Assembly: GCA_017469545.1 (NCBI GenBank)
Contig: JAFUGE010000008.1
Span: 127,268-191,267 of the forward strand
Length of the DNA: 64,000 bases
Direction: 5' to 3'
Origin: Clostridia bacterium
GTDB lineage: Bacteria > Bacillota > Clostridia > TANB77 > UBA1234
Part shown: positions 2,855-38,858 of the stretch, piece by piece
Layout of the letters: each line of letters starts with the position of its first letter
Numbering within the stretch: position 1 is the first letter of the stretch
Notes under the pieces: generated by a model
Database searches by the model: none
What the model was told of the DNA's origin: nothing
What the model saw: the letters and a program-made list of their open reading frames with translations, nothing else
Made by a program: the position numbers and the translations under genes

Positions 2855-4285
2855 ATGGAATATGAAGTAATCATTGGACTTGAGGTTCACGCAGAGCTTT
2901 CAACGAAAACGAAAATATATTGTGGTTGTACCAATGAATATGGTAGCGACCCGAATACGCATTGTTGCCCGGTTTGTACGGGAATGCCAGGGGCTCTTCC
3001 AGTGCTAAATGAGAAAGTAGTGGAGTATGCTGTACGTGCTGGACTAGCGATGGATTGCGATATTACGCGCGAAAGTAAACAAGATAGAAAAAATTATTTC
3101 TATCCAGATACGCCAAGGGCTTACCAGATTTCGCAATTTGATTTGCCATTATGCGTAGGTGGAAAAGTGGATGTCAATGTAGAAGGCGAAAACAAGACGA
3201 TTGGCATTACGAGAATTCATATTGAGGACGACGCTGGAAAGCTAGTGCACGACGCATATACGGGCGGAACATTGGTAGATTTGAACCGTGCAGGCGTCCC
3301 ATTAATTGAGATTGTATCAGAGCCAGATATGAGAAGCGCGGCAGATGCTGTGGCATATGTAGAAAAATTAAAGGGAATCTTAGAATATATTGGTGTTTCC
3401 GATTGTAAGATGCAGGAGGGCTCTCTTCGTGCGGATGTGAATTTATCACTTCGCCCTGTGGGCCAAAAAGAGTTTGGGACAAGAACGGAAACAAAGAATT
3501 TGAACTCGTTTAGATCGATTGCGAGAAGTATTGAATTTGAAATTGAGAGACAAAAAGCGGTGCTAGAAGCCGGTGGAGTGGTTTATCAGGAGACAAGAAG
3601 ATGGGACGACGAGAAGGGCGAGGGCTTTTCTATGAGAACCAAGGAAAACGCTAACGATTATCGTTATTTCCCAGAGCCTGATTTGTTGCCAATTAATTTG
3701 TCGGAAGAGTATATTGAAAACATTAAAAAATCTTTGCCGGAGTTGCCAGAAAGCAGAAAAGCTAGATATATGAGTGAGCTAAACTTGCCGGAATATGATG
3801 CCGGAATCATTATCTCGTCTAAGGCGTTATCAGATTTCTTTGAGGAAGCGGGAAAAGTATGTGGCAATTACAAGGCCGTGAGCAACTGGATTATGAGCGA
3901 TATTATCAGGGCTTCGAGAGAATACGAATTCGAGTACGACAATATGCCATATACCGCAGAGCAATTTGGTCATTTAATTCAGCTAATTGATAGTGGCAAA
4001 ATCAGTGGTTCCATTGCGAAAACCGTCTTTGAAGAAATGATAAAGACGGGCAATGAACCAGAAAAAATTGTGGAAGAGAAAGGCTTAGCACAAGTTTCTG
4101 ACGAGGGCGCTATCAAAGAAGTTGTGGATAGAGTTGTGGCCGCAAATCCACAATCCATTATCGACTATAAGGCGGGAAAAGACAGAGCCCTAGGCTTTTT
4201 GGTTGGCCAATGTATGAAAGAAATGAAGGGCAAAGGCAATCCACAAATATTAAATAAATTAATTTTGGAGATTTTAAATAAATAA
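2855..4285 (+). CDS. gatB: Asp-tRNA(Asn)/Glu-tRNA(Gln) amidotransferase subunit B
   Basis: 476 aa, MEYEVIIGLEVHAELSTKTKIYC... is a canonical GatB N-terminus; RBS AAGGAG upstream; follows gatA. Confidence 0.9.
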   Translation: MEYEVIIGLEVHAELSTKTKIYCGCTNEYGSDPNTHCCPVCTGMPGALPVLNEKVVEYAVRAGLAMDCDITRESKQDRKNYFYPDTPRAYQISQFDLPLCVGGKVDVNVEGENKTIGITRIHIEDDAGKLVHDAYTGGTLVDLNRAGVPLIEIVSEPDMRSAADAVAYVEKLKGILEYIGVSDCKMQEGSLRADVNLSLRPVGQKEFGTRTETKNLNSFRSIARSIEFEIERQKAVLEAGGVVYQETRRWDDEKGEGFSMRTKENANDYRYFPEPDLLPINLSEEYIENIKKSLPELPESRKARYMSELNLPEYDAGIIISSKALSDFFEEAGKVCGNYKAVSNWIMSDIIRASREYEFEYDNMPYTAEQFGHLIQLIDSGKISGSIAKTVFEEMIKTGNEPEKIVEEKGLAQVSDEGAIKEVVDRVVAANPQSIIDYKAGKDRALGFLVGQCMKEMKGKGNPQILNKLILEILNK

Positions 4286-11513: not shown

Positions 11514-11540
11514 GTAGGGGCAGCGTACCACGCTGCCCGC
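11514..11540. repeat. REP-like palindromic element (TGTAGGGGCAGCGTACCACGCTGCCCG)
   Basis: Family member starting 6 nt after the stop of the 9681 gene. Confidence 0.85.
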
Positions 11541-13664: not shown

Positions 13665-13690
13665 TGTAGGGGCAGCGTAGCACGCTGCCC
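13665..13690. repeat. REP-like palindromic element (TGTAGGGGCAGCGTAGCACGCTGCCC)
   Basis: Family member in the miaB-downstream intergenic region. Confidence 0.85.
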
Positions 13691-15772: not shown

Positions 15773-16609
15773 ATGAATAAAAAGTGGATTTGGATTATTG
15801 TGATTCTTTTAATTGCCGTCATTATTTTTGCAAAGTGTTTTTCGAACAATAAAAATGAGGAGGAATTTAAGCCTATTGATAAAAATATTGGTGACGAATT
15901 TACAGAGCTTTCATATCCTAACAAAATGTTTATTGTGAATTATGAAATAGCGGACGTTACTGGCGATGGAGAGAAAGATATGATACTACTGATTGGCGAA
16001 GCTGAGAGCGGAGAAGGGCTAAGTGATGCTACCATAAGCAATATGGATGTGGTTGTCTATGATACGTCAAATAGTCAGTTTATTAAGGCGGATGCAAGCA
16101 AATTATCTGGCAAGAACAATAGAATGACTGTAGCGGATTTTACTGGTGATCAGATATTGGATATTATGATAACAAGTGATAATGGCAAGAATAGTGCAAG
16201 AATTTATACATATGAAAATGGAAAGTTAAAAGAAATTTGGAAAGAGAGAAATAATAAAGGATTAGTTTTTATCGGTGAATTTAAGGATGGTTTTAAAGTA
16301 GAAATCAATAATAAGAAATTGAATTTGAGTAAGGTATTAGATTTGCCAAGTGAGAATTATGTGGAAGCTTCTTTTTATAATAATTCGGGAAAGTTATTGA
16401 GTGATAAAAAATCAATTAGTACTTCTGGATTTACTTCCATTGAGGTAATAAAACTGAATGATAGAAATGGACTACGAACATTGCAAAGAATTTATGGAAT
16501 GAATGATAATGATATCTTAGACGAAATTGGGACCGTGTGGAAATATAGTGAAGGCAAATGGCAAATGGTTGAAGTAAAAGGACTAAAACTCGGGAATTTG
16601 TTATATTAG
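15773..16609 (+). CDS. membrane-anchored/secreted protein with FG-GAP/VCBS-like repeats
   Basis: N-terminal TM/signal segment WIWIIVILLIAVIIF; repeated DxTGDGxxD(I/M) motifs (VTGDGEKDMILL, FTGDQILDIMI) typical of FG-GAP/VCBS beta-propeller repeats. Confidence 0.5.
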   Translation: MNKKWIWIIVILLIAVIIFAKCFSNNKNEEEFKPIDKNIGDEFTELSYPNKMFIVNYEIADVTGDGEKDMILLIGEAESGEGLSDATISNMDVVVYDTSNSQFIKADASKLSGKNNRMTVADFTGDQILDIMITSDNGKNSARIYTYENGKLKEIWKERNNKGLVFIGEFKDGFKVEINNKKLNLSKVLDLPSENYVEASFYNNSGKLLSDKKSISTSGFTSIEVIKLNDRNGLRTLQRIYGMNDNDILDEIGTVWKYSEGKWQMVEVKGLKLGNLLY

Positions 16610-16673
16610 ATTCACACTTTTTTATCTTCTTGCATAATATAAATTAGAATTCAGAAAGGAAGGAGAAGATAAA

Positions 16674-16799
16674 ATGGGTGACGAATTAAGAAGTTGCAAT
16701 AACAATGATGTAGGAGGAGTTACAGACAATCGTAACTGCTGCTGCAGTAGTAGATTTCTTTTCTTTATACTAATATTTATCTTATTATTTATAGACTAG
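16674..16799 (+). CDS. tiny Cys-rich membrane peptide (41 aa), paralog of the pair at 34316-34597
   Basis: Not in the ORF track (<60 aa). ATG at 16674 with AAGGAGAAG RBS encodes MGDELRSCNNNDVGGVTDNRNCCCSSRFLFFILIFILLFID; a terminator hairpin follows at 16822. Confidence 0.5.
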   Translation: MGDELRSCNNNDVGGVTDNRNCCCSSRFLFFILIFILLFID

Positions 16800-16821
16800 G
16801 AATACTTAATTTGATGAAAAT

Positions 16822-16859
16822 GCCAGAAAATATAACGAAATATTTTCTGGCATTTTTTG
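16822..16859 (+). terminator. rho-independent terminator
   Basis: GCCAGAAAATA...TATTTTCTGGC hairpin followed by ATTTTTTG. Confidence 0.7.
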
Positions 16860-16944
16860 TGCGCGAAAAAATACTTTATGTGCTATGAAAGATAAAATGT
16901 GGAAAAGAAGTTATAAAATTTGCTCATATGAAAGAGGTGAGCAT

Positions 16945-17574
16945 ATGGTAGATAAAGTTTGTGAGACGTTATTGGATAAGATTAGAAAGAGTGATACGAC
17001 GATTGACGACGAGAAGGCAGAGATTATCTACTATGGCTTGCAGAATATGATTGGGGAATTGCCGAAGTTAATTATAGTGTTTGGACTTGCTGCATTACTT
17101 GGGATATTTAAATTAGTGGTGTTGGGTACAATAGTTTTAATGATATATAGAGGCTTTGCTGGTGGAGTACATTTGAAAACCCATATTTCTTGTTTGTTGA
17201 CTAGCACTTTTTTAATGATTGGAAGTACATATTTGGCAAAAGAGGTAATATATGAAAATGTGCTTTTAGTATATACAATCTTGCTAGCATTTAACCTTAT
17301 AATAGCTTTATTATATGCGCCAGCAGATACAGAAAATAAGCCAATTATGAAAGAGTCTCAGAGAAAAAAGCAAAAAATTGAAAGCATTTTAATGGTATTT
17401 TTAATTTATTTTTTATCAATAGTTGTTATAAAAGAGAGAGCAATTACAAATTTGTTTATGTATATGATAACAATAGAATCGCTAATGATTACGCCACTTG
17501 CTTATAAAATTTTTGACAATAAAACGGGAGACGAGAGGAGAAAAGCAATACTAGAAGGAAGAGAGGGTATGTAA
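16945..17574 (+). CDS. agrB: accessory gene regulator B (AgrD-processing membrane peptidase)
   Basis: Polytopic membrane protein with the AgrB signature RGFAGGVHLKTHISC (compare consensus R.FAGG.HA.T...C); ATG at 16945 preceded by AGAGGTGA. Confidence 0.75.
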   Translation: MVDKVCETLLDKIRKSDTTIDDEKAEIIYYGLQNMIGELPKLIIVFGLAALLGIFKLVVLGTIVLMIYRGFAGGVHLKTHISCLLTSTFLMIGSTYLAKEVIYENVLLVYTILLAFNLIIALLYAPADTENKPIMKESQRKKQKIESILMVFLIYFLSIVVIKERAITNLFMYMITIESLMITPLAYKIFDNKTGDERRKAILEGREGM

Positions 17575-17623
17575 AAAGGGCCGGCCTTTTCACATAGATA
17601 AAAAATACGAAGGAGGAATTAAA

Positions 17624-17734
17624 ATGTTAAAATTATTAGCTAAACTAGCTGAGAAATATGCTAAGGCAAGCACAAGCACTTGCCCAGGTTGGTATTGGCA
17701 TGAAGCTAAAATGCCTACTTCTTTATTAAAATAA
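17624..17734 (+). CDS. agrD: candidate AgrD autoinducing-peptide precursor (36 aa)
   Basis: Not in the ORF track. ATG 8 nt after GAAGGAGGAA, immediately downstream of agrB, encodes MLKLLAKLAEKYAKASTSTCPGWYWHEAKMPTSLLK: an amphipathic leader, a Ser/Thr-Cys core (STCPGWY; the Cys could form a thiolactone) and a charged tail; a bidirectional terminator follows. Confidence 0.55.
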   Translation: MLKLLAKLAEKYAKASTSTCPGWYWHEAKMPTSLLK

Positions 17735-17742
17735 TGATTTAA

Positions 17743-17779
17743 TAAAAGGCATGCACTTAGGCACGCCTTTTATTTTTTT
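17743..17779. terminator. bidirectional terminator between agrD and the convergent kinase gene
   Basis: AAAAGGCATGC...GCACGCCTTTT hairpin flanked by an A tract and a T tract. Confidence 0.65.
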
Positions 17780-17782
17780 GTT

Positions 17783-19138
17783 TTAAGATGTTGTGAGAGT
17801 TTCCCTTTGCTTTTTATCTTTCTCTGGCTTTTCTCTAATTTGAATGTATAATTCTTGTCTAAAGTATTTATCGTCTTTGTCAGTGTTAAGAATGACGTTG
17901 TCATTTCTTTCTACGATTTTTCTTACTTCCCATAATCCAATTCCAGAATTTCTATTTTTCGTAGAATAATCTTTTTCATATATTTTCTCGGTATCAATAT
18001 CTTTTAGCAAGTAGGTATTTTCAATCGAAAATAATTGTATTTTTGTCTTGTTACTTTGACGTACCACAATATTAATTTCTTTTTCTTCCGTTTCTTCGGC
18101 AGCTTCAATTGCATTATCTAACAACACTCCAAGGATTTTACAAAAGTCATAGATTGGCATATCTAAGTTTTGATAATTAAATATGGACTCGATGTTAAAG
18201 CTAATATTTTTCTCGTATGCTTCTTGGCATTTGGTAGAAATTAGTGCAAGTACAGATGGTTCATTAATCTTTTCGGCAGTGATGTTTTCTAACGTATTGA
18301 CTTTATCTACATCTTTCTTCAAGCCTAAATAATATTTTTCTAATCCGCCAATATCATTCATTCTAATATATCCACCGATGGCATGAACAACATTGTTATA
18401 ATCATGCTTGAATGTTCTAATGTTATCATTTAAGTTTTGTAATTTTGCATTTTCTGCATTTGAATTTTTCAAATCTATTTCTGTTTTCTCTAATTTTATT
18501 TGCTTATGAGTATTGTAAATAGCTAAAATAACTAAAACGATATTCGATATCACATTGTAGATTAACAGCCACATTGGATAGTTATATTTGTTTAGCGTAT
18601 AAAAGATAATGTTTGGTCCAACCATAAGAAAAACTAGAGCGATATTGATTCCTATGAAACGATTGTTGAATTGCAAATTGATATTTCTCTTCTTTTTGAA
18701 TACGTAAAGTAGAGATGCAATAATCATGTAACAAATAATTATCATAATAAGCACAGGTATTGAAGCTATAACATTTTCATTGCTATTTGATAATTTTAAT
18801 ATTTGAAAAGCTACAGTTCCACTGATCATTTCGACAGGTACAGCTACTATCATTAAAAATATGCTGTAAAGTATATCTTTTATAAAGGAATTCTTCTTGA
18901 AGGAAAATAGAATCAAGGCACCTAACAAAACAAAAATTATTGGATTAATAGCATATAAAGAATCTGGTGCTAGAAATCTAAATAGTGTTGTGTATATTCC
19001 TAATATTATTGAATAAATTAGTTTGGATTTTAAATTGAGTTCTAAATTAAATGCTATATTTAAAATTATGGACTGAACAAATATTTGTAAAACTGCGAAG
19101 ATAAATGTTATTCCTCCATTAATAAGTAATTCCTTCAT
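17783..19138 (-). CDS. AgrC/HPK10-family sensor histidine kinase (GHKL ATPase, polytopic N-terminal sensor)
   Basis: 451 aa; six or more N-terminal TM helices; C-terminal half has HDYNNVVHAIGGY (H-box of LytTR-associated kinases) and GIGLWEVRKIVE (G-box). Confidence 0.75.
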   Translation of the reverse strand: MKELLINGGITFIFAVLQIFVQSIILNIAFNLELNLKSKLIYSIILGIYTTLFRFLAPDSLYAINPIIFVLLGALILFSFKKNSFIKDILYSIFLMIVAVPVEMISGTVAFQILKLSNSNENVIASIPVLIMIIICYMIIASLLYVFKKKRNINLQFNNRFIGINIALVFLMVGPNIIFYTLNKYNYPMWLLIYNVISNIVLVILAIYNTHKQIKLEKTEIDLKNSNAENAKLQNLNDNIRTFKHDYNNVVHAIGGYIRMNDIGGLEKYYLGLKKDVDKVNTLENITAEKINEPSVLALISTKCQEAYEKNISFNIESIFNYQNLDMPIYDFCKILGVLLDNAIEAAEETEEKEINIVVRQSNKTKIQLFSIENTYLLKDIDTEKIYEKDYSTKNRNSGIGLWEVRKIVERNDNVILNTDKDDKYFRQELYIQIREKPEKDKKQRETLTTS

Positions 19139-19829
19139 TAAAAATCAACTTCCTTTCATCAGTGATATAACGATCACTGTAATTTATTGCATTTTCTTCT
19201 ATATATAAAGTGTGTCTTTTGTTATCTATATTGGTTATCTTTTGACTATTTACAATAAAGGATTTGCTGCATCTCACAAAATATCCTGGGAGACAACTTC
19301 TAATTTCTTCTACTGTACCATAAATTTGAAAGTCTGATGTAGTAGTATGCACAGTGGCTTTAGCGCCTTCTTTTTCAATATATGAAATATCACTTACTCT
19401 GAATAAACGTTTACTACTTCCAAGTTTTACAAACATGTTTTTGTTATCATAGATATCGTCGCATAATCTAAGTACGGTTTCTTCTAGTTTAGAGTAGGTA
19501 ATAGGTTTCATTAAAAAATCAAATGTTTTCACTTTATAGGCTAGCATCGAATATTCGAAGTGAGCAGTTAAGAATACGATGTATACATATTTGTCAACGG
19601 TTCTAATTTGCCTTGCTAAATCAATTCCTGTCACTTGATTTGACAAATCAATGTCTAAGAATATGACATCCACTTTATTACTGCTTAAATAATCAATAAG
19701 CTTGGTAGAGTTCGTTGCAGCAAAAGAGACTTCAGCATCAATATCATGATTCACAAAAATGGATTTTAATGTTGAAGTTATTTTATTTAGTGTAGTTTTA
19801 TTATCGTCACATAATACAAATCGCAACAT
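19119..19829 (-). CDS. LytTR-family response regulator (AgrA-like)
   Basis: 236 aa; receiver domain (VIFLDIDL aspartate pocket) plus C-terminal LytTR DNA-binding domain (RVSDISYIEKEGAKATVHT); overlaps the kinase gene by 20 nt. Confidence 0.75.
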   Translation of the reverse strand: MLRFVLCDDNKTTLNKITSTLKSIFVNHDIDAEVSFAATNSTKLIDYLSSNKVDVIFLDIDLSNQVTGIDLARQIRTVDKYVYIVFLTAHFEYSMLAYKVKTFDFLMKPITYSKLEETVLRLCDDIYDNKNMFVKLGSSKRLFRVSDISYIEKEGAKATVHTTTSDFQIYGTVEEIRSCLPGYFVRCSKSFIVNSQKITNIDNKRHTLYIEENAINYSDRYITDERKLIFNEGITY

Positions 19830-24003: not shown

Positions 24004-24465
24004 TTATCCTTTTACAATCTTGCCGCAAGCAATTTTTGTGCCGGAATTGCCGCTAGGCTGTGTTTTAAAGTCGTCTGGCATATCGTGAATGATTATTACT
24101 TTGCCGAGGATATCTTTGAGTTTGAATTTGTTCACTAAAACGCTCATATAGGCATAGCCGTTGTTTTCCAAAAGTGGTGGCAAGTCGCCGGCATGGAATG
24201 GATGGGGGCAGTTTGTTGGGTTATAGTGCGTTTTCGCATTTGCAAATTCGTCCTCTGGATTTCCTGTGCAAGAAGTACCCTCATGTATATGAAAACCGAA
24301 AAATCTGCCTTTGCAGTGGTCTTTTGCTTGTGGCAGTCCTTTAATTTTAGCTGTTACCATTACACCGTCTTTCACTTCTTTAAAAGTTACCGTTCCGTTA
24401 ATTCTTGGATAATCTTTTCCACCTCTTATATGTGCGGTAGCTTCATTAAAAATATTCAAAAACAT
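24004..24465 (-). CDS. sodC: Cu,Zn superoxide dismutase family protein
   Basis: GFHIHEGTSCTGNPEDEFANAKTHYNP...HAGDLPPL...GNSGTKIACGKI match Cu/Zn-SOD metal-binding His cluster and C-terminal G(N)xGxRxACG motif; no signal peptide apparent. Confidence 0.75.
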   Translation of the reverse strand: MFLNIFNEATAHIRGGKDYPRINGTVTFKEVKDGVMVTAKIKGLPQAKDHCKGRFFGFHIHEGTSCTGNPEDEFANAKTHYNPTNCPHPFHAGDLPPLLENNGYAYMSVLVNKFKLKDILGKVIIIHDMPDDFKTQPSGNSGTKIACGKIVKG

Positions 24466-26637: not shown

Positions 26638-26659
26638 GGGCAGCGTAGCACGCTGCCCG
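26633..26659. repeat. REP-like palindromic element overlapping the uvrB stop codon
   Basis: TGTAGGGGCAGCGTAGCACGCTGCCCG. Confidence 0.85.
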
Positions 26660-27820: not shown

Positions 27821-28141
27821 ATGATATGCGAATATACGAAAGACAATCGAGAACTCACGATTAAGTTTTCGGGAGAGATTGACCATCATACCTGCGATGT
27901 GATTAAGGTCAAATCTGATTATGAGATTCAAAAGTATATGCCTAAAAAAGTTGTGTTTGATTTTAAAGATGTTAAGTTTATGGATAGTTCGGGAATTGGA
28001 ATGTTAATAGGGAGGTATAAACAAATTTTGAGAATTGGTGGACAAGCTGAAATGGTTCATACTTCTAAAGATATTAAGAGGATTTTCGAGATGTCGGGTA
28101 TCTTTAAAATCATTCCATTAAGAGAGGAGGCTAGTTTATGA
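27821..28141 (+). CDS. spoIIAA: anti-sigma F factor antagonist (STAS domain)
   Basis: 106 aa with phosphorylatable serine motif [12 protein letters not shown]; first gene of the spoIIAA-spoIIAB-sigF operon; RBS AAGGAGG. Confidence 0.85.
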
Positions 28142-28566
28142 GTGATAATGAAATGAAATTAGAAATAAAAAGTAAGTCTAGCAATGAGGCCTTTGCAAGA
28201 GTAGTTGTGGCAGCTTTTGCTTCGCAACTAGATCCAACGATTGAGGAGCTTGCTGATATTAAAACTGCAGTTTCGGAAGCGGTTACGAATTGTATTATTC
28301 ACGGTTATGACGGGAAAGAAGGAACGATACATATTCATTGCAGATTGGAGGGAAGAGAGCTTGAAATTGAAATCATTGACTACGGCAAGGGGATTGAAAA
28401 CATAGAGATTGCGAAGCAACCTCTATATACTTCTAAGCCGGATTTAGATCGTAGTGGTATGGGATTTACTATCATGGAGAGTTTTATGGACGAAATGAAA
28501 GTAGAGTCTATCGTTGGAGTTGGAACGAAAATAAAAATGAGAAAGGAAATTGGGGAGGCTGTATGA
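28138..28566 (+). CDS. spoIIAB: anti-sigma F factor (serine protein kinase, GHKL)
   Basis: 142 aa; N-box [11 protein letters not shown] and G-box GMGFTIM; ATGA overlap with spoIIAA. Confidence 0.85.
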
Positions 28567-29255
28567 ATGAATTGATATGGCAAGCGCAAAGCGGAAACAA
28601 AGAGGCCATGTCAAGATTAATAGACGAGAATATAGGGTTAGTTTGGAATATTGTAAAGAGATTTAATAATAGAGGTTATGAGTTGGAGGATTTGTTTCAA
28701 ATCGGTTGTATGGGTTTTGTAAAAGCAATCCAGAGATTTAATACGGAATATGAGACTCAGCTTTCTACCTACGCTGTACCAATGATTATTGGAGAGATAA
28801 AACGATTTTTGAGAGATAATGGACCAATTAAAGTAAGTCGTTCACTTAAAGAACTAGCAATGAAAGTGAGACAATTGCAAGAAGAAAATACGGCAAAGTT
28901 AGGGGACGAACTAAGTATTCATGAATTAGCAAATAAGCTTGGAGTCAGTAAAGAAGAAGTGGTAGCAGCGCTGGATGCGACTTCGTATATCGAGTCGCTG
29001 GATAGGCAGGCATATGAAGACGACGAGACCACGATAGGAGAGAGAATTGTTTGCGAAGATAAGGAGTATCACAATTTACTTGATAAGATTACAATTGAGT
29101 CTATGATTAGTCGACTAACTGATAAGGAAAAAAGAGTAATCATTTATCGATATTATAAAGAAAAAACACAGACTGAAATTTCTCATTTACTTGGCATTTC
29201 GCAGGTTCAAGTTTCGAGAATAGAGAAAAGAGCTTTAGAGAAAATGAGGGCATGA
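28563..29255 (+). CDS. sigF: RNA polymerase sporulation sigma factor F
   Basis: 230 aa sigma-70 family with regions 2 ([18 protein letters not shown]), 3 and 4 ([18 protein letters not shown]); operon position after spoIIAB. Confidence 0.8.
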
Positions 29256-30189: not shown

Positions 30190-30480
30190 ATGGTTGTGGA
30201 AGAAAAGAAAATGACGAAAATGCAAAATATTATTTTGGAGAACCGTAGTAAGTTAACGGTGTCTGGTGTTCTTGATGTTTTGAATTTTGACGAGCAGGTA
30301 ATTACGATTGATACGGAGCTTGGAATTTTAATTATTAAGGGCGGTAATTTACATTTAAATAAATTTAATCTTGATAGTACAGAGTTGAATGTGGAGGGCG
30401 ATATTGCTTCGCTTGTTTATAATGATAAAACGTTTAATAAAAAGAATGGCGAAAGTCTTTTGACGAAGATTTTTAAATAG
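30190..30480 (+). CDS. yabP: sporulation protein YabP
   Basis: 96 aa; LTVSGVLDVLNFDEQVITIDTELGILIIKGGNLHLNKFNLD matches the YabP family; followed by yabQ and divIC as in Bacillus. Confidence 0.8.
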   Translation: MVVEEKKMTKMQNIILENRSKLTVSGVLDVLNFDEQVITIDTELGILIIKGGNLHLNKFNLDSTELNVEGDIASLVYNDKTFNKKNGESLLTKIFK

Positions 30481-30499: not shown

Positions 30500-30895
30500 A
30501 TGCTAGAGAACCAAGTGTATGTTTTTTTGTGGACTGTTTTGATTGGCGCAGTAATGGGCCTGATATTTGATTTTTTTAGGATTATGAGAAGAAAAGGGAA
30601 TACGAAGGATGTTTTAGTATATCTTCAAGATATTGTATTTTGGCTTATCGTTACAGTTATTATTATTGTTAGTACATTTCTGATCAATAATGGTGAGCTA
30701 AGAGGATATATGATTTTAGGATATATTCTGGGGGGCATTTTCTATATTTTATTATTGAGCGGAATGATTCGAAAAGTGCTATCTGCTATCCTGGATTTTA
30801 TTGAAAATATTTTTAAAAAGATGGGGAATATTTTGACAAAGTTCGTTAAAAATTTTAAATTTTTAGGCAAAAAGAATAAAAAAATAGAAAATTAG
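30500..30895 (+). CDS. yabQ: spore cortex biosynthesis membrane protein YabQ
   Basis: 131 aa small membrane protein with the YabQ N-terminus (VFLWTVLIGAVMGLIFDFFRIMRRK); conserved synteny. Confidence 0.7.
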   Translation: MLENQVYVFLWTVLIGAVMGLIFDFFRIMRRKGNTKDVLVYLQDIVFWLIVTVIIIVSTFLINNGELRGYMILGYILGGIFYILLLSGMIRKVLSAILDFIENIFKKMGNILTKFVKNFKFLGKKNKKIEN

Positions 30896-30983
30896 GCAGG
30901 ATTTTATGATTTTTTGCGGAAATAGATATTAGTATGGTTTTTTGTCCATATTATTAACATATGATAATTATAGGAGACTACTA

Positions 30984-31262
30984 ATGAAAAAAGTGTTTAT
31001 AAAGCTTGGAAAGACACTGGCTTTCACTGCTCTTAGTATGTATATTGTAATCACTTTGGTCAATCAGCAAATCACATTAATGGATTTGAAGGATAGTCGT
31101 GATCAGTATGCAAAGCAGATACAAGAAGAAAAGCTGCGCTCGGAGCAATTGGCTAAGATTAAAGGAGAGATTTCTACTCCGGAATATATAGAAGATGTTG
31201 CGCGCGAAAAGCTTGGGCTTGTTATGCCGTATGAGATAGTTTTCGTTGATGCGAATTTGTAG
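30984..31262 (+). CDS. divIC: septum formation initiator family protein (DivIC/FtsB-like)
   Basis: Single TM segment followed by a coiled coil (LKDSRDQYAKQIQEEKLRSEQLAKIKGEI) and a conserved C-terminal beta segment; synteny yabP-yabQ-divIC. Confidence 0.7.
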   Translation: MKKVFIKLGKTLAFTALSMYIVITLVNQQITLMDLKDSRDQYAKQIQEEKLRSEQLAKIKGEISTPEYIEDVAREKLGLVMPYEIVFVDANL

Positions 31263-31316: not shown

Positions 31317-31646
31317 ATGAGAACAAAAAAAGAGAAAAAACAAAGCTTGCAATTAAAATACACAGGATGCCTTGATGGAGCAAATTCTATTTATTTACAT
31401 TATGGTATTGGAGAGAACTGGGAAGATGTTTCAGAGTGCAAAATGAGAAAATTAAAGACTTGTTACAAGACGGAGGTTACTATTCCTGCTGGTGCAGAGT
31501 TAAAATTCTGCTTTAGAGATACAGAGGGGAACTGGGATAACAATTATGGCAAGGATTATTCTTATAATACTACTACAGAAGATACACCAATGAATATTTA
31601 TTCAGCTGTAGAGGTTAATCCATACACACCAAAGACATTGTCATAG
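31317..31646 (+). CDS. hypothetical protein (109 aa, possible beta-sandwich carbohydrate-binding-like domain)
   Basis: ORF with RBS AAAGGAGAGA; aromatic/Gly-rich segments (NWDNNYGKDYSY) weakly reminiscent of CBM25/26 starch-binding modules; low confidence. Confidence 0.4.
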   Translation: MRTKKEKKQSLQLKYTGCLDGANSIYLHYGIGENWEDVSECKMRKLKTCYKTEVTIPAGAELKFCFRDTEGNWDNNYGKDYSYNTTTEDTPMNIYSAVEVNPYTPKTLS

Positions 31647-31671
31647 GATAGTTTTATAAAATTGAACTCGT

Positions 31672-31694: not shown

Positions 31695-31780
31695 ATTTTT
31701 CTTATATCAAATTTAAACTTGAAATCTCCTTCAAATTGTGGTAAAATATAAAAATGTTAATATTTTAAGGAGGTTCCCCA

Positions 31781-32121
31781 TGTCGTATTCTCATACGAAA
31801 ATCGTTTCTCGTTGGAGCAAGCATCAAATGGTGTTTAACGAAAAAGTGGAAGAACAGGATCGGACAGTCTACAAGAAGGAGTACCGAAAGAACAAAGAAG
31901 AGGAGCGGATACAATTTAAGCGTGAGATGGATGTCATTTTGAGGCTTTTTCGCGAGCTATACACTGCAGAGCTTTCGGAAAAGACGATGGAAAAGATTAT
32001 GGCAAAGTTTTCTATTCCGACTGCCAAGATTTGCGTAATAACGCGGCTTGGCAATGAACTGGAGGCAAGGGACATTGACAAGAGCTACTGGATTGCAGTA
32101 GCGAAGAAAGAATTTCCGTGA
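31781..32121 (+). CDS. hypothetical protein
   Basis: ATG at 31781 with AAGGAGG 7 nt upstream (MSYSHTKIVSRWSKHQ...); the track start 31738 lacks an RBS. Confidence 0.5.
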
Positions 32122-33353: not shown

Positions 33354-34232
33354 ATGAATTCTATCTTAAATTCATTCAAAATATTTTATGAAACAAAAGT
33401 ACTAGCTTATATTAATACACTATTAGAATATCCTATCAAAATTGTTGTTCTGCTGGTCGATTTGGCTATTGTTGGCTATATTGTTTATAAAGTGATTAAG
33501 CTTCTAAAGGGAACCAGAGCAATGCAGCTTGTTAAGGGCATTATCATATTGGTAATTGGAACAGCACTTAGCGAATTTTTATCATTAAATGTATTACATT
33601 ATTTATTAAGTTCTATTATGACGTATGGCGTTTTGGTTGCCATTGTGGTATTTCAACCCGAGCTTAGAAAGGCCTTAGAACAAGTAGGAAATGCTAATTT
33701 TAAGAAGATATTGGATTTCGAAGAGACGGACGAGGAGCCGTCTTGTATTGATGCGGTTGTTGACGCGGTAACGGATATGGCAAGTCATAAGGTTGGGGCT
33801 TTGATTGTTTTTGAAAGGGAAGTTAACTTAGAGGAATTGGTTAAGACGGGTGTTGCTATGGATTCTAAGACATCGAAGGAGCTTCTCATTAATATTTTTG
33901 TGCCAGATACACCACTTCATGATGGGGCTGTTATCATTAGAGATAATAAGATTGTGGCTGCATCATGTATTTTGCCGTTAACTAGCAATATTTCTTTGGA
34001 CAGAATTTTTGGAACAAGGCATAGGGCGGCAATTGGTGTAACAGAGTCTTCGGACTGTATTGCTGTGGTAGCCTCGGAAGAGACTGGCGCACTTTCACTT
34101 GCGATTGAAGGAAAAATTATCAGAGATATTTCCAGTGAACAGTTAAGGAAAGAACTTAAGAGGAGACTTGTTAAGCCAAAAAAGAACGTAAATCATTTGA
34201 GTTTAAAAAGAAGAATGACAGATGTAAAATAA
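33354..34232 (+). CDS. cdaA: diadenylate cyclase CdaA (DisA_N/DAC domain, membrane-anchored)
   Basis: Three N-terminal TM helices then DAC domain with DGA (LHDGAVII) and RHRAA (GTRHRAAIGVTE) motifs. Confidence 0.85.
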   Translation: MNSILNSFKIFYETKVLAYINTLLEYPIKIVVLLVDLAIVGYIVYKVIKLLKGTRAMQLVKGIIILVIGTALSEFLSLNVLHYLLSSIMTYGVLVAIVVFQPELRKALEQVGNANFKKILDFEETDEEPSCIDAVVDAVTDMASHKVGALIVFEREVNLEELVKTGVAMDSKTSKELLINIFVPDTPLHDGAVIIRDNKIVAASCILPLTSNISLDRIFGTRHRAAIGVTESSDCIAVVASEETGALSLAIEGKIIRDISSEQLRKELKRRLVKPKKNVNHLSLKRRMTDVK

Positions 34233-34240
34233 AAATTTGT

Positions 34241-34272
34241 ATGGGTCGCTAAGTATAAGCGACCCATTATTT
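34241..34272 (+). terminator. rho-independent terminator after cdaA
   Basis: ATGGGTCGCT-aagtata-AGCGACCCAT hairpin followed by TATTTGTG; the stem GGTCGCT/AGCGACC is shared with the terminator at 8342. Confidence 0.65.
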
Positions 34273-34283
34273 GTGAATAGAAA

Positions 34284-34311
34284 CGGGCAGCGTATTACGC
34301 TGCCCCTACAG
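34284..34311. repeat. REP-like palindromic element (CGGGCAGCGTATTACGCTGCCCCTACAG)
   Basis: Reverse-orientation family member downstream of cdaA. Confidence 0.85.
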
Positions 34312-34315
34312 TTTG

Positions 34316-34438
34316 TTAGCAACATCCGTTGCCGATACCTCTGTTGTCGCCATTGTTACAGCAACAAGAGATAATGAAGAATAAAAGGATGATCCAGATA
34401 AATTCGTCACATCCACAGCCATTATTTCTACCGAACAT
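34316..34438 (-). CDS. tiny Cys-rich membrane peptide (40 aa)
   Basis: Not in the ORF track. Minus-strand ATG (34438) after GAAAGGGGGG encodes MFGRNNGCGCDEFIWIILLFFIISCCCNNGDNRGIGNGCC. Confidence 0.5.
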   Translation of the reverse strand: MFGRNNGCGCDEFIWIILLFFIISCCCNNGDNRGIGNGCC

Positions 34439-34474
34439 TTCAAATTCCCCCCTTTCGAAAGATACTTCTATAAA

Positions 34475-34597
34475 CTAGTTAGAGCGGTTGTTACATCCAC
34501 ATCCATTCCAGAATAATAATAGGAATAGGATTAAAAACCATAGGATAGTGTCGTCGTCGTTATTACAACAGGAAAGATTTCTAAAAAATGGTCCCAT
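34475..34597 (-). CDS. tiny Cys-rich membrane peptide (40 aa), tandem paralog
   Basis: Not in the ORF track. Minus-strand ATG (34597) 6 nt after AAGGAGG encodes MGPFFRNLSCCNNDDDTILWFLILFLLLFWNGCGCNNRSN. Confidence 0.5.
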   Translation of the reverse strand: MGPFFRNLSCCNNDDDTILWFLILFLLLFWNGCGCNNRSN

Positions 34598-34728
34598 ATG
34601 CATCCTCCTTAAATATGTTTAAAGTTATAAGACGAGAAAGAGCGTGACGTTCTTGTTTTCAATGTCTTATGGTATATAGTATTCGAATTTGGGAAATGTG
34701 TTACAGAATAAAATGAACTTGACAAAAA

Positions 34729-34760
34729 TGTAGGGGCAGCGTAGTACGCTGCCCCTACAG
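34729..34760. repeat. REP-like element, fully symmetric copy (TGTAGGGGCAGCGTAGTACGCTGCCCCTACAG)
   Basis: GTAG/CTAC on both flanks; abuts the 3' end of the tRNA at 34769. Confidence 0.85.
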
Positions 34761-34768
34761 TAAATGAT

Positions 34769-34843
34769 TGGTGACCCATACGGGAATCGAACCCATGATT
34801 CGGCCTTGAGAGGGCCGCGTCTTAACCGCTTGACCAATGGGCC
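34769..34843 (-). tRNA. tRNA, probably tRNA-Glu (anticodon CTC)
   Basis: Reverse complement GGCCCATTGGTCAAGCGGTTAAGACGCGGCCCTCTCAAGGCCGAATCATGGGTTCGATTCCCGTATGGGTCACCA; acceptor and T-arm pair well; anticodon stem CGGCC/GGCCG with loop CTCTCAA; isotype assignment by hand is tentative. Confidence 0.65.
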
Positions 34844-35059
34844 ACATTACTTTGATAGTATAGCACGAGAAAATAAAATTGACAAGAGTTTTTTTGAAAA
34901 AAGTGTTGAAAAATTGTGTATACCGTGTTATAATAAGCAAGTGCTTAAAGCACAATTCACATATCATTGTAGTATTTAAGCCGTGTGCGGCGAAAAAAGT
35001 CGTGGTTGGATGCTTAGCAATGGTAGAGGAAAATAACAAAAAACAAGGAGGAAATGAAA

Positions 35060-38836: not shown

Positions 38837-38858
38837 GGGCAGCGTATTACGCTGCCCG
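38832..38858. repeat. REP-like palindromic element overlapping the upstream stop codon
   Basis: TGTAGGGGCAGCGTATTACGCTGCCCG. Confidence 0.85.

Follow-up and report, generated by a model that had tools for sequence, protein, structure and literature searches.

The window analyzed here, a 64,000-nucleotide stretch of a Clostridia bacterium genome (GenBank assembly GCA_017469545.1, contig JAFUGE010000008.1, positions 127,268 to 191,267 of the forward strand), carries three very short open reading frames (ORFs), designated A, B, and C. A and B lie in tandem, flanked by a convergent cdaA gene (33354 to 34232), whose orthologues carry a DAC domain, and by a tRNA-Glu(CTC) gene, which was the sole Rfam match over positions 34100 to 34900 (Table 1). 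An earlier sequence-only reading of this DNA had placed the pair between a repetitive extragenic palindromic (REP) element and a tRNA. This is correct, as the REP-like palindrome GGGCAGCGTAnnACGCTGCCC occurs at 34285 to 34305 and at 34734 to 34754. The positions given for the three ORFs and the good ribosome-binding sites ascribed to them were also right, since a Shine-Dalgarno sequence (SD) can be read 6 to 8 nt ahead of each ATG (AAGGAGG at 6 nt for A, AAGGGGGG at 8 nt for B, and AAGGAG at 8 nt for C). The start of A was set at 34597 because its orthologues begin with MG and because the alternative ATG at 34603 abuts the SD, which makes its use unlikely. In the window, the 36 nt from the stop codon of A to B hold only the SD of B; A and B would therefore be co-transcribed.

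Table 1. Features of the window, numbered from its first nucleotide. HMM, hidden Markov model; dN/dS, ratio of nonsynonymous to synonymous substitution rates; AF2, AlphaFold2.
Feature	Position	Strand	Description	Basis
Gene A, first cistron	34475..34597	minus	40 amino acids, MGPFFRNLSCCNNDDDTILWFLILFLLLFWNGCGCNNRSN (MGPFF...), A-type	ORF, family HMM, syntenic orthologues, dN/dS
Gene B, second cistron	34316..34438	minus	40 amino acids, MFGRNNGCGCDEFIWIILLFFIISCCCNNGDNRGIGNGCC, B-type	ORF, homologues P0001-P0011, dN/dS, AF2
Gene C	16674..16799	plus	41 amino acids, MGDELRSCNNNDVGGVTDNRNCCCSSRFLFFILIFILLFID	ORF, syntenic homologues P0107 and P0108, dN/dS
Putative sigma-K-type promoter of the A-B operon	34676..34704	minus	-35 GTAACA at 34704-34699, -10 AATACTAT at 34683-34676
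Putative sigma-K-type promoter of gene C	16612..16640	plus	-35 TCACAC, -10 CATAATAT; fits AC-N17-CATAnnnTA
Two hairpins 3' of B	34241..34305	minus	REP-like palindrome 34285-34305 and bidirectional terminator-like hairpin 34241-34267, shared with convergent cdaA
Terminator-like REP hairpin after tRNA-Glu	34729..34759	minus	14-pair stem followed by TTTTT; REP copy 34734-34754
Intrinsic terminator of gene C	16818..16858	plus	Hairpin followed by a T-run; divides C from agrB	Read from sequence
tRNA-Glu(CTC)	34769-34843	minus
SpoIIAB-like anti-sigma kinase	28138-28566
Sigma-70-family factor	28563-29255		Likely sigF
YabP	30190-30480
YabQ	30500-30895
DivIC/FtsB-like protein	30942-31262
AgrB	16885-17574	plus
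AgrD candidate	17624-17734	plus	MLKLLAKLAEKYAKASTSTCPGWYWHEAKMPTSLLK
AgrC-like histidine kinase	17783-19138	minus
LytTR response regulator	19119-19829	minus

Since small ORFs readily arise by chance and the window holds 760 of 20 to 150 codons, a 40-codon ORF alone proves nothing, and it is conservation that makes A, B, and C real. The A-B pair adjoins cdaA in six related contigs, and a word-based search returned three close homologues of B, all of them on contigs with an A-like and then a B-like ORF beside cdaA. When the GTDB species genomes were scanned with CdaA, the pair turned up in the closest relative, a Clostridia metagenome-assembled genome (MAG) from the Hadza gut (83% CdaA identity), in which the tRNA is present too; two relatives at 60% CdaA identity also carry the pair. 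Differences between orthologues fall mostly at third codon positions. For B, loci L002 and L003 differ 0/0/11 times at codon positions 1/2/3, so that all 11 changes are third-position ones, and for A, loci L005 and L006 differ 1/0/10 times (10 of 11 at the third position), with 58 of 58 residues identical. Codon-level comparison, with values stated only where dS could be estimated, gave dN/dS of 0.02 to 0.19 for A, 0 to 0.23 for B, and 0.14 for C (overall about 0 to 0.2). A, B, and C are thus protein-coding genes on which purifying selection acts strongly in related genomes. Selection had been proposed for them beforehand, with the pattern of synonymous and nonsynonymous changes in relatives named as the refuting test, and in this comparison the reading frames of all three genes proved to be conserved. 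By exact-sequence look-up, none of the three peptides was present in the collection searched.

A and B are clearly related to each other and belong to one family. A family HMM applied to the window matched A (E = 4e-14) and B (E = 1e-11) and nothing else among the 760 small ORFs. As seen in the family alignment, a short head rich in Gly, Cys, and Asn is followed by an acidic patch, an invariant Trp at the start of a very hydrophobic helix of Ile, Leu, and Phe, and a tail that is rich in Cys, Asn, and Gly in the window peptides and in Gly and Tyr in other genera. AF2 run with the family alignment returned a single helix, at residues 10 to 27 of B, with a predicted local distance difference test (pLDDT) score of about 83 within it, in agreement with the sequence-only reading, which gave each of these small proteins a single hydrophobic helix. 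Searching 5.8 billion proteins with a profile yielded 106 family matches. HMMER, run exhaustively over 1.84 billion cluster representatives (50% identity), yielded 137 at E <= 1e-3, nearly all of 30 to 60 residues; the longer ones appear to be mis-called ORFs or fusions. A degenerate DNA pattern built on the helix motif ILWFIILFLLLF recovered a further view of the family, with 120 metagenome stretches encoding 87 distinct peptides. The matches carry the product name "hypothetical protein," and the named sources are all Clostridia, including Acetivibrio straminisolvens, A. mesophilus, Petroclostridium, and many MAGs. For A, B, C, and 57 relatives, no Pfam or NCBIfam model, those for YjcZ included, scored above noise; weak matches to Pfam DltX (13.6 bits, where the cutoff is 25) and one of C to TIGR00743 (16.5 bits, cutoff 71) were dismissed as helix composition. 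A profile search of the PDB gave nothing meaningful, the PHROGs phage families gave only a weak match to a family of unknown function, and the core sequence was not found in the literature searched. Overall, the A/B family is genuine, widespread, largely unannotated, and absent from Pfam and NCBIfam.

Scanning metagenome loci with the family HMM separated three subtypes. A-type peptides carry the motif ...(D/S)(E/T)ILWFIILFLLLF(W/C)..., B-type peptides are exemplified by MPENRGCGCGFGFGDDCCWIIILILLICCCCGGNRGCC, and the rarer T-type contains ...SEILFFILVFLILF.... Two or more family genes occur in 84 of 123 loci, and a B-type gene follows on the same strand within 300 nt for at least 65 of the 107 A-type genes that have enough downstream sequence. 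These A-then-B pairs comprise 54 distinct peptide combinations, the two genes lying a median of 54 nt apart, and the same pairing is found in Acetivibrio genomes (L087-L090). The tandem arrangement had been read as a duplication; by these counts it is no evidence of a recent one, and the A-B pair is an ancient, obligate-looking operon of two subfamilies. The kept order and co-occurrence of two diverged paralogues are the usual signature of a hetero-oligomer, suggesting that A and B act as one. Apparent natural fusions were also observed, as single ORFs of 65 to 78 amino acids with two family units and two helices (P0017, P0022, P0025, P0172, P0173, P0177, and P0184); they look like fusions of adjacent paralogues, which fits units acting together. 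Separately, in some genomes three to five family genes form an array on one strand, with the three subtypes (ILFFIL, WIWIII, and ILWFII) intermingled, as at L091 (2536-3141), L181 (1838-2500), and L189 (2968-3779).

The region upstream of A is conserved as well. In six orthologous loci, the invariant blocks are GTAACAC and, after 13 variable nucleotides, GAATAnnATATA(c/g)CATA. Among 80 non-identical upstream regions of the family, 57 contain GTAACA, against 4.5 expected, and the bipartite pattern GT[AC]ACA-N14-16-[CA]ATAnnAT was likewise found in 57 of the 80 (71%) but in none of 434 control regions, taken upstream of ordinary ORFs on the same contigs. The family form of the promoter reads TGTAACAC-N14-(G/T)(A/C)ATAnTATA, and a minority -10 reading, TCATATTATA, is an exact fit to AC-N16-CATAnnnTA. 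In a C. difficile study, sigma-K promoters with mapped transcription start sites are listed (Table S7) for cotE (AGTAACAC...AATAGAAT), cotA (TGTAACA...), and CD1891 (TGTAACAC-N14-TAATACTATATACTA). All three share the architecture TGTAACAC...AATAnTAT, and that of CD1891 is nearly identical to the family motif. Of 25 C. difficile sigma-K promoters, 8 have GTAAC at the -35 position, compared with none of the 47 sigma-E promoters. The family promoter is therefore conserved and, to judge from its sequence, is of sigma-K type. By analogy with CD1891, transcription of A-B is predicted to start near 34670.

Other sigma factors fitted less well. Sigma-G, sigma-F, sigma-E, and sigma-A readings were a poor fit (0 to 8% of the family promoters, no more than in the controls), and an extracytoplasmic function (ECF) reading, with a sigma-X-like TGTAAC, was ruled out because no CGxC-type -10 is conserved. 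Thus, of the sigma-G and sigma-K promoters that the sequence-only reading had suggested looking for, sigma-K is borne out (57/80 against 0/434) and sigma-G, without enrichment over the controls, is not; the spore association proposed there gains support from a family-wide promoter that matches mapped sigma-K promoters of C. difficile. The shared promoter also offers a sharp sequence signature for predicting sigma-K regulons in uncultured Clostridia. In the leader (34598-34670, minus strand), an inverted repeat, ATAAGAC...GTCTTAT, was noted in the window, and many other family leaders carry repeats such as AAAGAAC...GTTCTTT; their folds did not clearly surpass those of shuffled sequence (z from -0.8 to -2.2). 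Hairpins in the 5' untranslated region, from the predicted transcription start to the SD, folded no better than shuffles (z from +0.2 to -2.2) and are not claimed. Elsewhere in the window, a strict sigma-K match, ACACACCAAAGACATTGTCATAGGATA, lies at 31624-31650 (plus strand), about 115 nt before an SD and ATG within ORF 31738-32121, which encodes a Lys/Glu-rich protein without a Pfam match. It could mark another late-sporulation gene or be due to chance.

Gene C differs from A and B in its layout, which is the opposite of theirs: a long Cys/Asn-rich head precedes a hydrophobic helix at the very C terminus. Two homologues of C were identified (P0107 and P0108), in which FLFFILIFILLFID is invariant, and the slot between a YybI_C-domain gene and agrB that C occupies was found in three contigs. 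YybI is a spore-coat protein of Bacillus. The gene directly upstream of C (15773-16609) had FG-GAP_3 as its only Pfam match, its orthologues at the syntenic position in L084-L086 bear the PF27120 (YybI_C) annotation, and its adjacency to C is kept in three contigs. The promoter string of C, TCACAC-N15-CATAATATA, follows a strict sigma-K pattern, which the two syntenic homologues (L084 and L085) have in front of them as well.

The earlier description of C as a third paralogue of A and B was not established. The A/B seed HMM gave no match to C at E <= 1, and hhalign of C against the A/B family reached a probability of 78.6% over 14 helix columns only. With a T-type HMM (EILFFILVFLILF), C ranked second among the 760 small ORFs (E = 0.014); its helix, RFLFFILIFILLF, resembles SEILFFILIFLILF of the T-type, but the segment is of low complexity and the genome is AT-rich. 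C may thus be a divergent relative of A/B, with marginal homology confined to the hydrophobic helix. We treat it as a real and, by its own putative promoter and terminator, separately transcribed tiny protein of A/B style with a sigma-K-type promoter. C was also considered as an AgrD and rejected, since a typical AgrD candidate follows agrB and C lies upstream of agrB with its own promoter and terminator. AgrD precursors are encoded immediately 3' of agrB in the agr operon and have an amphipathic N terminus, a central Cys, and an acidic tail at the C terminus. The agr-type quorum-sensing locus in the window is complete (16885-19829).

The host itself is an endospore former, since the window contains genes for a SpoIIAB-like kinase and a sigma factor, together with yabP and yabQ (Table 1). 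In this setting, we propose that A and B are a heteromeric pair of late-sporulation membrane micro-proteins of the mother cell, with cross-linkable tails, and probably an overlooked component of the spore envelope; we give this reading a probability of roughly 0.6. The two peptides would be expressed from the sigma-K-type promoter in the mother cell, at a late stage of endospore formation, would become embedded in the membrane of the mother cell or in the outer membrane of the forespore, and would act there as a hetero-oligomer, as the A-then-B order kept across Clostridia suggests. Their tails may be cross-linked to, or may nucleate, the proteinaceous outer layers of the spore, with Cys residues forming disulfides and Tyr residues forming dityrosine links. 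Cys-rich and Gly/Tyr-rich compositions are both associated with cross-linking in spore coats, through disulfides and dityrosine, respectively. It is because the tails vary across genera between these two compositions that we see cross-linkability as their probable common property.

Several points weigh against this proposal. The -10 element mostly starts with AATA instead of the consensus CATA, a variant that is found in C. difficile sigma-K promoters and is common in sigma-E promoters too, and the assignment to sigma-K comes from sequence only. No B-type gene was detected for 39% of the A-type genes, a figure that the HMM threshold and ATG-only ORF calling may partly explain. The hydrophobic stretch is short (13 to 15 residues, or 18 with the flanking Cys), so that full spanning of the membrane is not certain. 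A few distant family members lie near metal-related genes, which would fit a role in metal handling. Finally, the Clostridia-only range reflects the named hits, all of them clostridial, rather than genome-wide presence or absence.

Among the alternatives, the one that survives best, although we consider it unlikely, is that the peptides are membrane-anchored, metallothionein-like binders. Their CxC, CC, and GCGC motifs, which adjoin the helix, would coordinate Zn, Cu, or Fe or house an Fe-S cluster, so that the peptides would supply the sporangium or spore with metal, or buffer it there, instead of forming structural cross-links. Members from gut lineages are indeed dense in CxC and CC motifs; one Acetivibrio member is located beside an HMA (CopZ-like) gene (L087, 3379-3591), and a Petroclostridium array (L091, with its neighbors at 288-728 and 3371-3781) lies between genes for a Csp protein of the copper-storage family and an ArsR-type HTH_5 protein. 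However, these are two cases among varied contexts and may be coincidental. What is conserved upstream is a promoter of the sporulation type, with no metal-responsive operator seen, and the tails of many members have one Cys or none and are of the GYGYGY type instead. Cys-based metal binding therefore cannot be the function of the family as a whole, and the replacement of Cys-rich by Gly/Tyr-rich tails in many relatives favors a cross-linkable tail over a metal site as the common property.

It is less probable still that A and B damage membranes, either as a type I toxin-like system or as a holin-like pair that helps to lyse the mother cell as sporulation ends. Their size and single hydrophobic helix might recall type I toxins, two paralogues per operon might recall holin/antiholin logic, and sigma-K timing would suit mother-cell lysis. 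Against this, their only phage match, in PHROGs, was the weak one to a family of unknown function, with none to a phage holin family; Lys/Arg-rich ends, which are typical of such toxins, are missing from the tails; and the orthologue alignments, in which no dedicated search was made, revealed no antisense RNA gene or conserved element on the opposite strand. The conserved Cys or Gly/Tyr tails would also be left unexplained.

We find it very improbable that the peptides are precursors of secreted or modified products, such as ribosomally synthesized and post-translationally modified peptides (RiPPs), bacteriocins, or SCIFF-like peptides, or that C is an agr-type signal. They are Cys-rich, short, and clostridial, and C lies directly upstream of agrB, as such a reading would have it. 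Nevertheless, the true AgrD is separate from C, no maturase, radical-SAM, or transporter gene is consistently adjacent (the neighbors are cdaA, tRNA-Glu, and varied housekeeping genes), and conservation is highest in the hydrophobic helix and not in a core peptide. A test for SCIFF/ranthipeptide membership gave no NCBIfam or Pfam match, SCIFF models included, and no radical-SAM gene adjoining the A-B pair in the window or in the loci of relatives. That A, B, and C are merely chance ORFs in AT-rich intergenic DNA, for which the abundance of small ORFs might speak, is refuted by reading frames kept at dN/dS far below 1, the family HMM scores (E = 1e-11 to 1e-14), the SD, promoter, and terminator of each ORF, hundreds of relatives (137 representatives in the HMMER search), and the conserved A-B pairing.

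A heteromeric membrane pair acting late in sporulation, as we propose for A and B, resembles several known systems in part. The closest is YjcZ (TIGR01732, "tiny_TM_bacill"), whose members likewise have about 30 to 50 residues, a Gly-rich variable head, and one conserved, very hydrophobic helix, and occur as several paralogues per genome in endospore formers. B. subtilis yjcZ has been assigned to the sigma-K regulon (PMC517825), and the A/B family has sigma-K-type promoters. The differences lie in the helix, which is ILWFIILFLLLF or CWIIILILLI in the A/B family and FALLVVLFILLIIV in YjcZ (TIGR01732), and in the acidic patch and invariant Trp, the Cys-rich or Gly/Tyr-rich C-terminal tail, and the obligate-looking A-then-B arrangement, all of which set the A/B family apart. 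The YjcZ models (TIGR01732 and Pfam YjcZ-like) gave no match at E <= 10 for A, B, C, or the 57 relatives, although matches with E above about 0.1 may be hidden by the HMMER filters. Judged by these profiles, the A/B family is an analogue of YjcZ, and on our proposal would be its functional counterpart in Clostridia, and not a member, so that the resemblance pointed out by the sequence-only reading does not extend to membership.

SpoVM, CmpA, and SscA of Bacillus are tiny mother-cell proteins that act at the forespore surface or coat, and SscA is small and contains Cys. SpoVM is an amphipathic surface helix and not a hydrophobic one, and the three are sigma-E-dependent or otherwise regulated and are not paired paralogues. 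They have no sequence similarity to A/B, and no library match linked them. The sigma-K-dependent spore surface proteins of clostridia resemble the A/B family in being rich in Cys, a property that may permit disulfide cross-linking of the outer layers. Among these, CdeC/CdeM and the sigma-K target CD1067 of C. difficile share with the A/B family late mother-cell sigma-K promoters of the GTAACA...(C/A)ATAnTAT type, but they are much larger and soluble, lack a hydrophobic helix, and have no detected homology to A/B. The eukaryotic CYSTM proteins are small and have one hydrophobic helix directly next to a cluster of Cys residues, and C in particular has their tail-anchored layout; this likeness is one of architecture only, as CYSTM is a eukaryotic family and A, B, and C have no Pfam match above noise.

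What is new here is the combination of an obligate-looking two-gene architecture with a promoter that reads as a canonical clostridial sigma-K promoter. More tentatively, and as a proposal that we consider doubtful, the A-B pair could be an unrecognized two-peptide sigma-K membrane module of Clostridia, in which a heterodimer of roughly 40-residue peptides has clusters of Cys or Tyr beside the membrane that covalently link the outer membrane of the forespore with the coat or exosporium or else hold a metal or Fe-S center. If so, a structural element has been missing from the picture of spores in gut and cellulolytic Clostridia, and both annotation and tryptic proteomics would have systematically missed A and B because of their tiny size, their hydrophobicity, and their near lack of Lys and Arg. 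The outer layers of clostridial spores are poorly understood, and few of the coat proteins of Bacillus are known to be conserved in Clostridia. The abundance of the A/B family in human-gut and cellulolytic Clostridia makes it a concrete candidate for a conserved component of the clostridial spore envelope, and the family illustrates how many functional micro-proteins go missed.

Regarding the surroundings of the operon, the terminator-like hairpin that follows the tRNA-Glu gene is predicted to insulate A-B from tRNA read-through. The element within it, GGGCAGCGTAnnACGCTGCCC, is a perfect 21-nt palindrome with 20 copies in 64 kb, against 0 expected, at sites that include, besides the two flanking the pair, 1323-1343, 11518-11538, 13670-13690, 26638-26658, 38837-38857, and 54242-54262. 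Nearly all copies lie just past stop codons, and variant copies with compensatory changes were also observed, such as GGGCGGCG...CGCCGCCC. It is a REP-like element and appears to serve as a terminator hairpin as well. The window also contains a gene for a Cu/Zn superoxide dismutase (Sod_Cu) at 24004-24465 (minus strand), in what is apparently the genome of an anaerobic member of the Clostridia.

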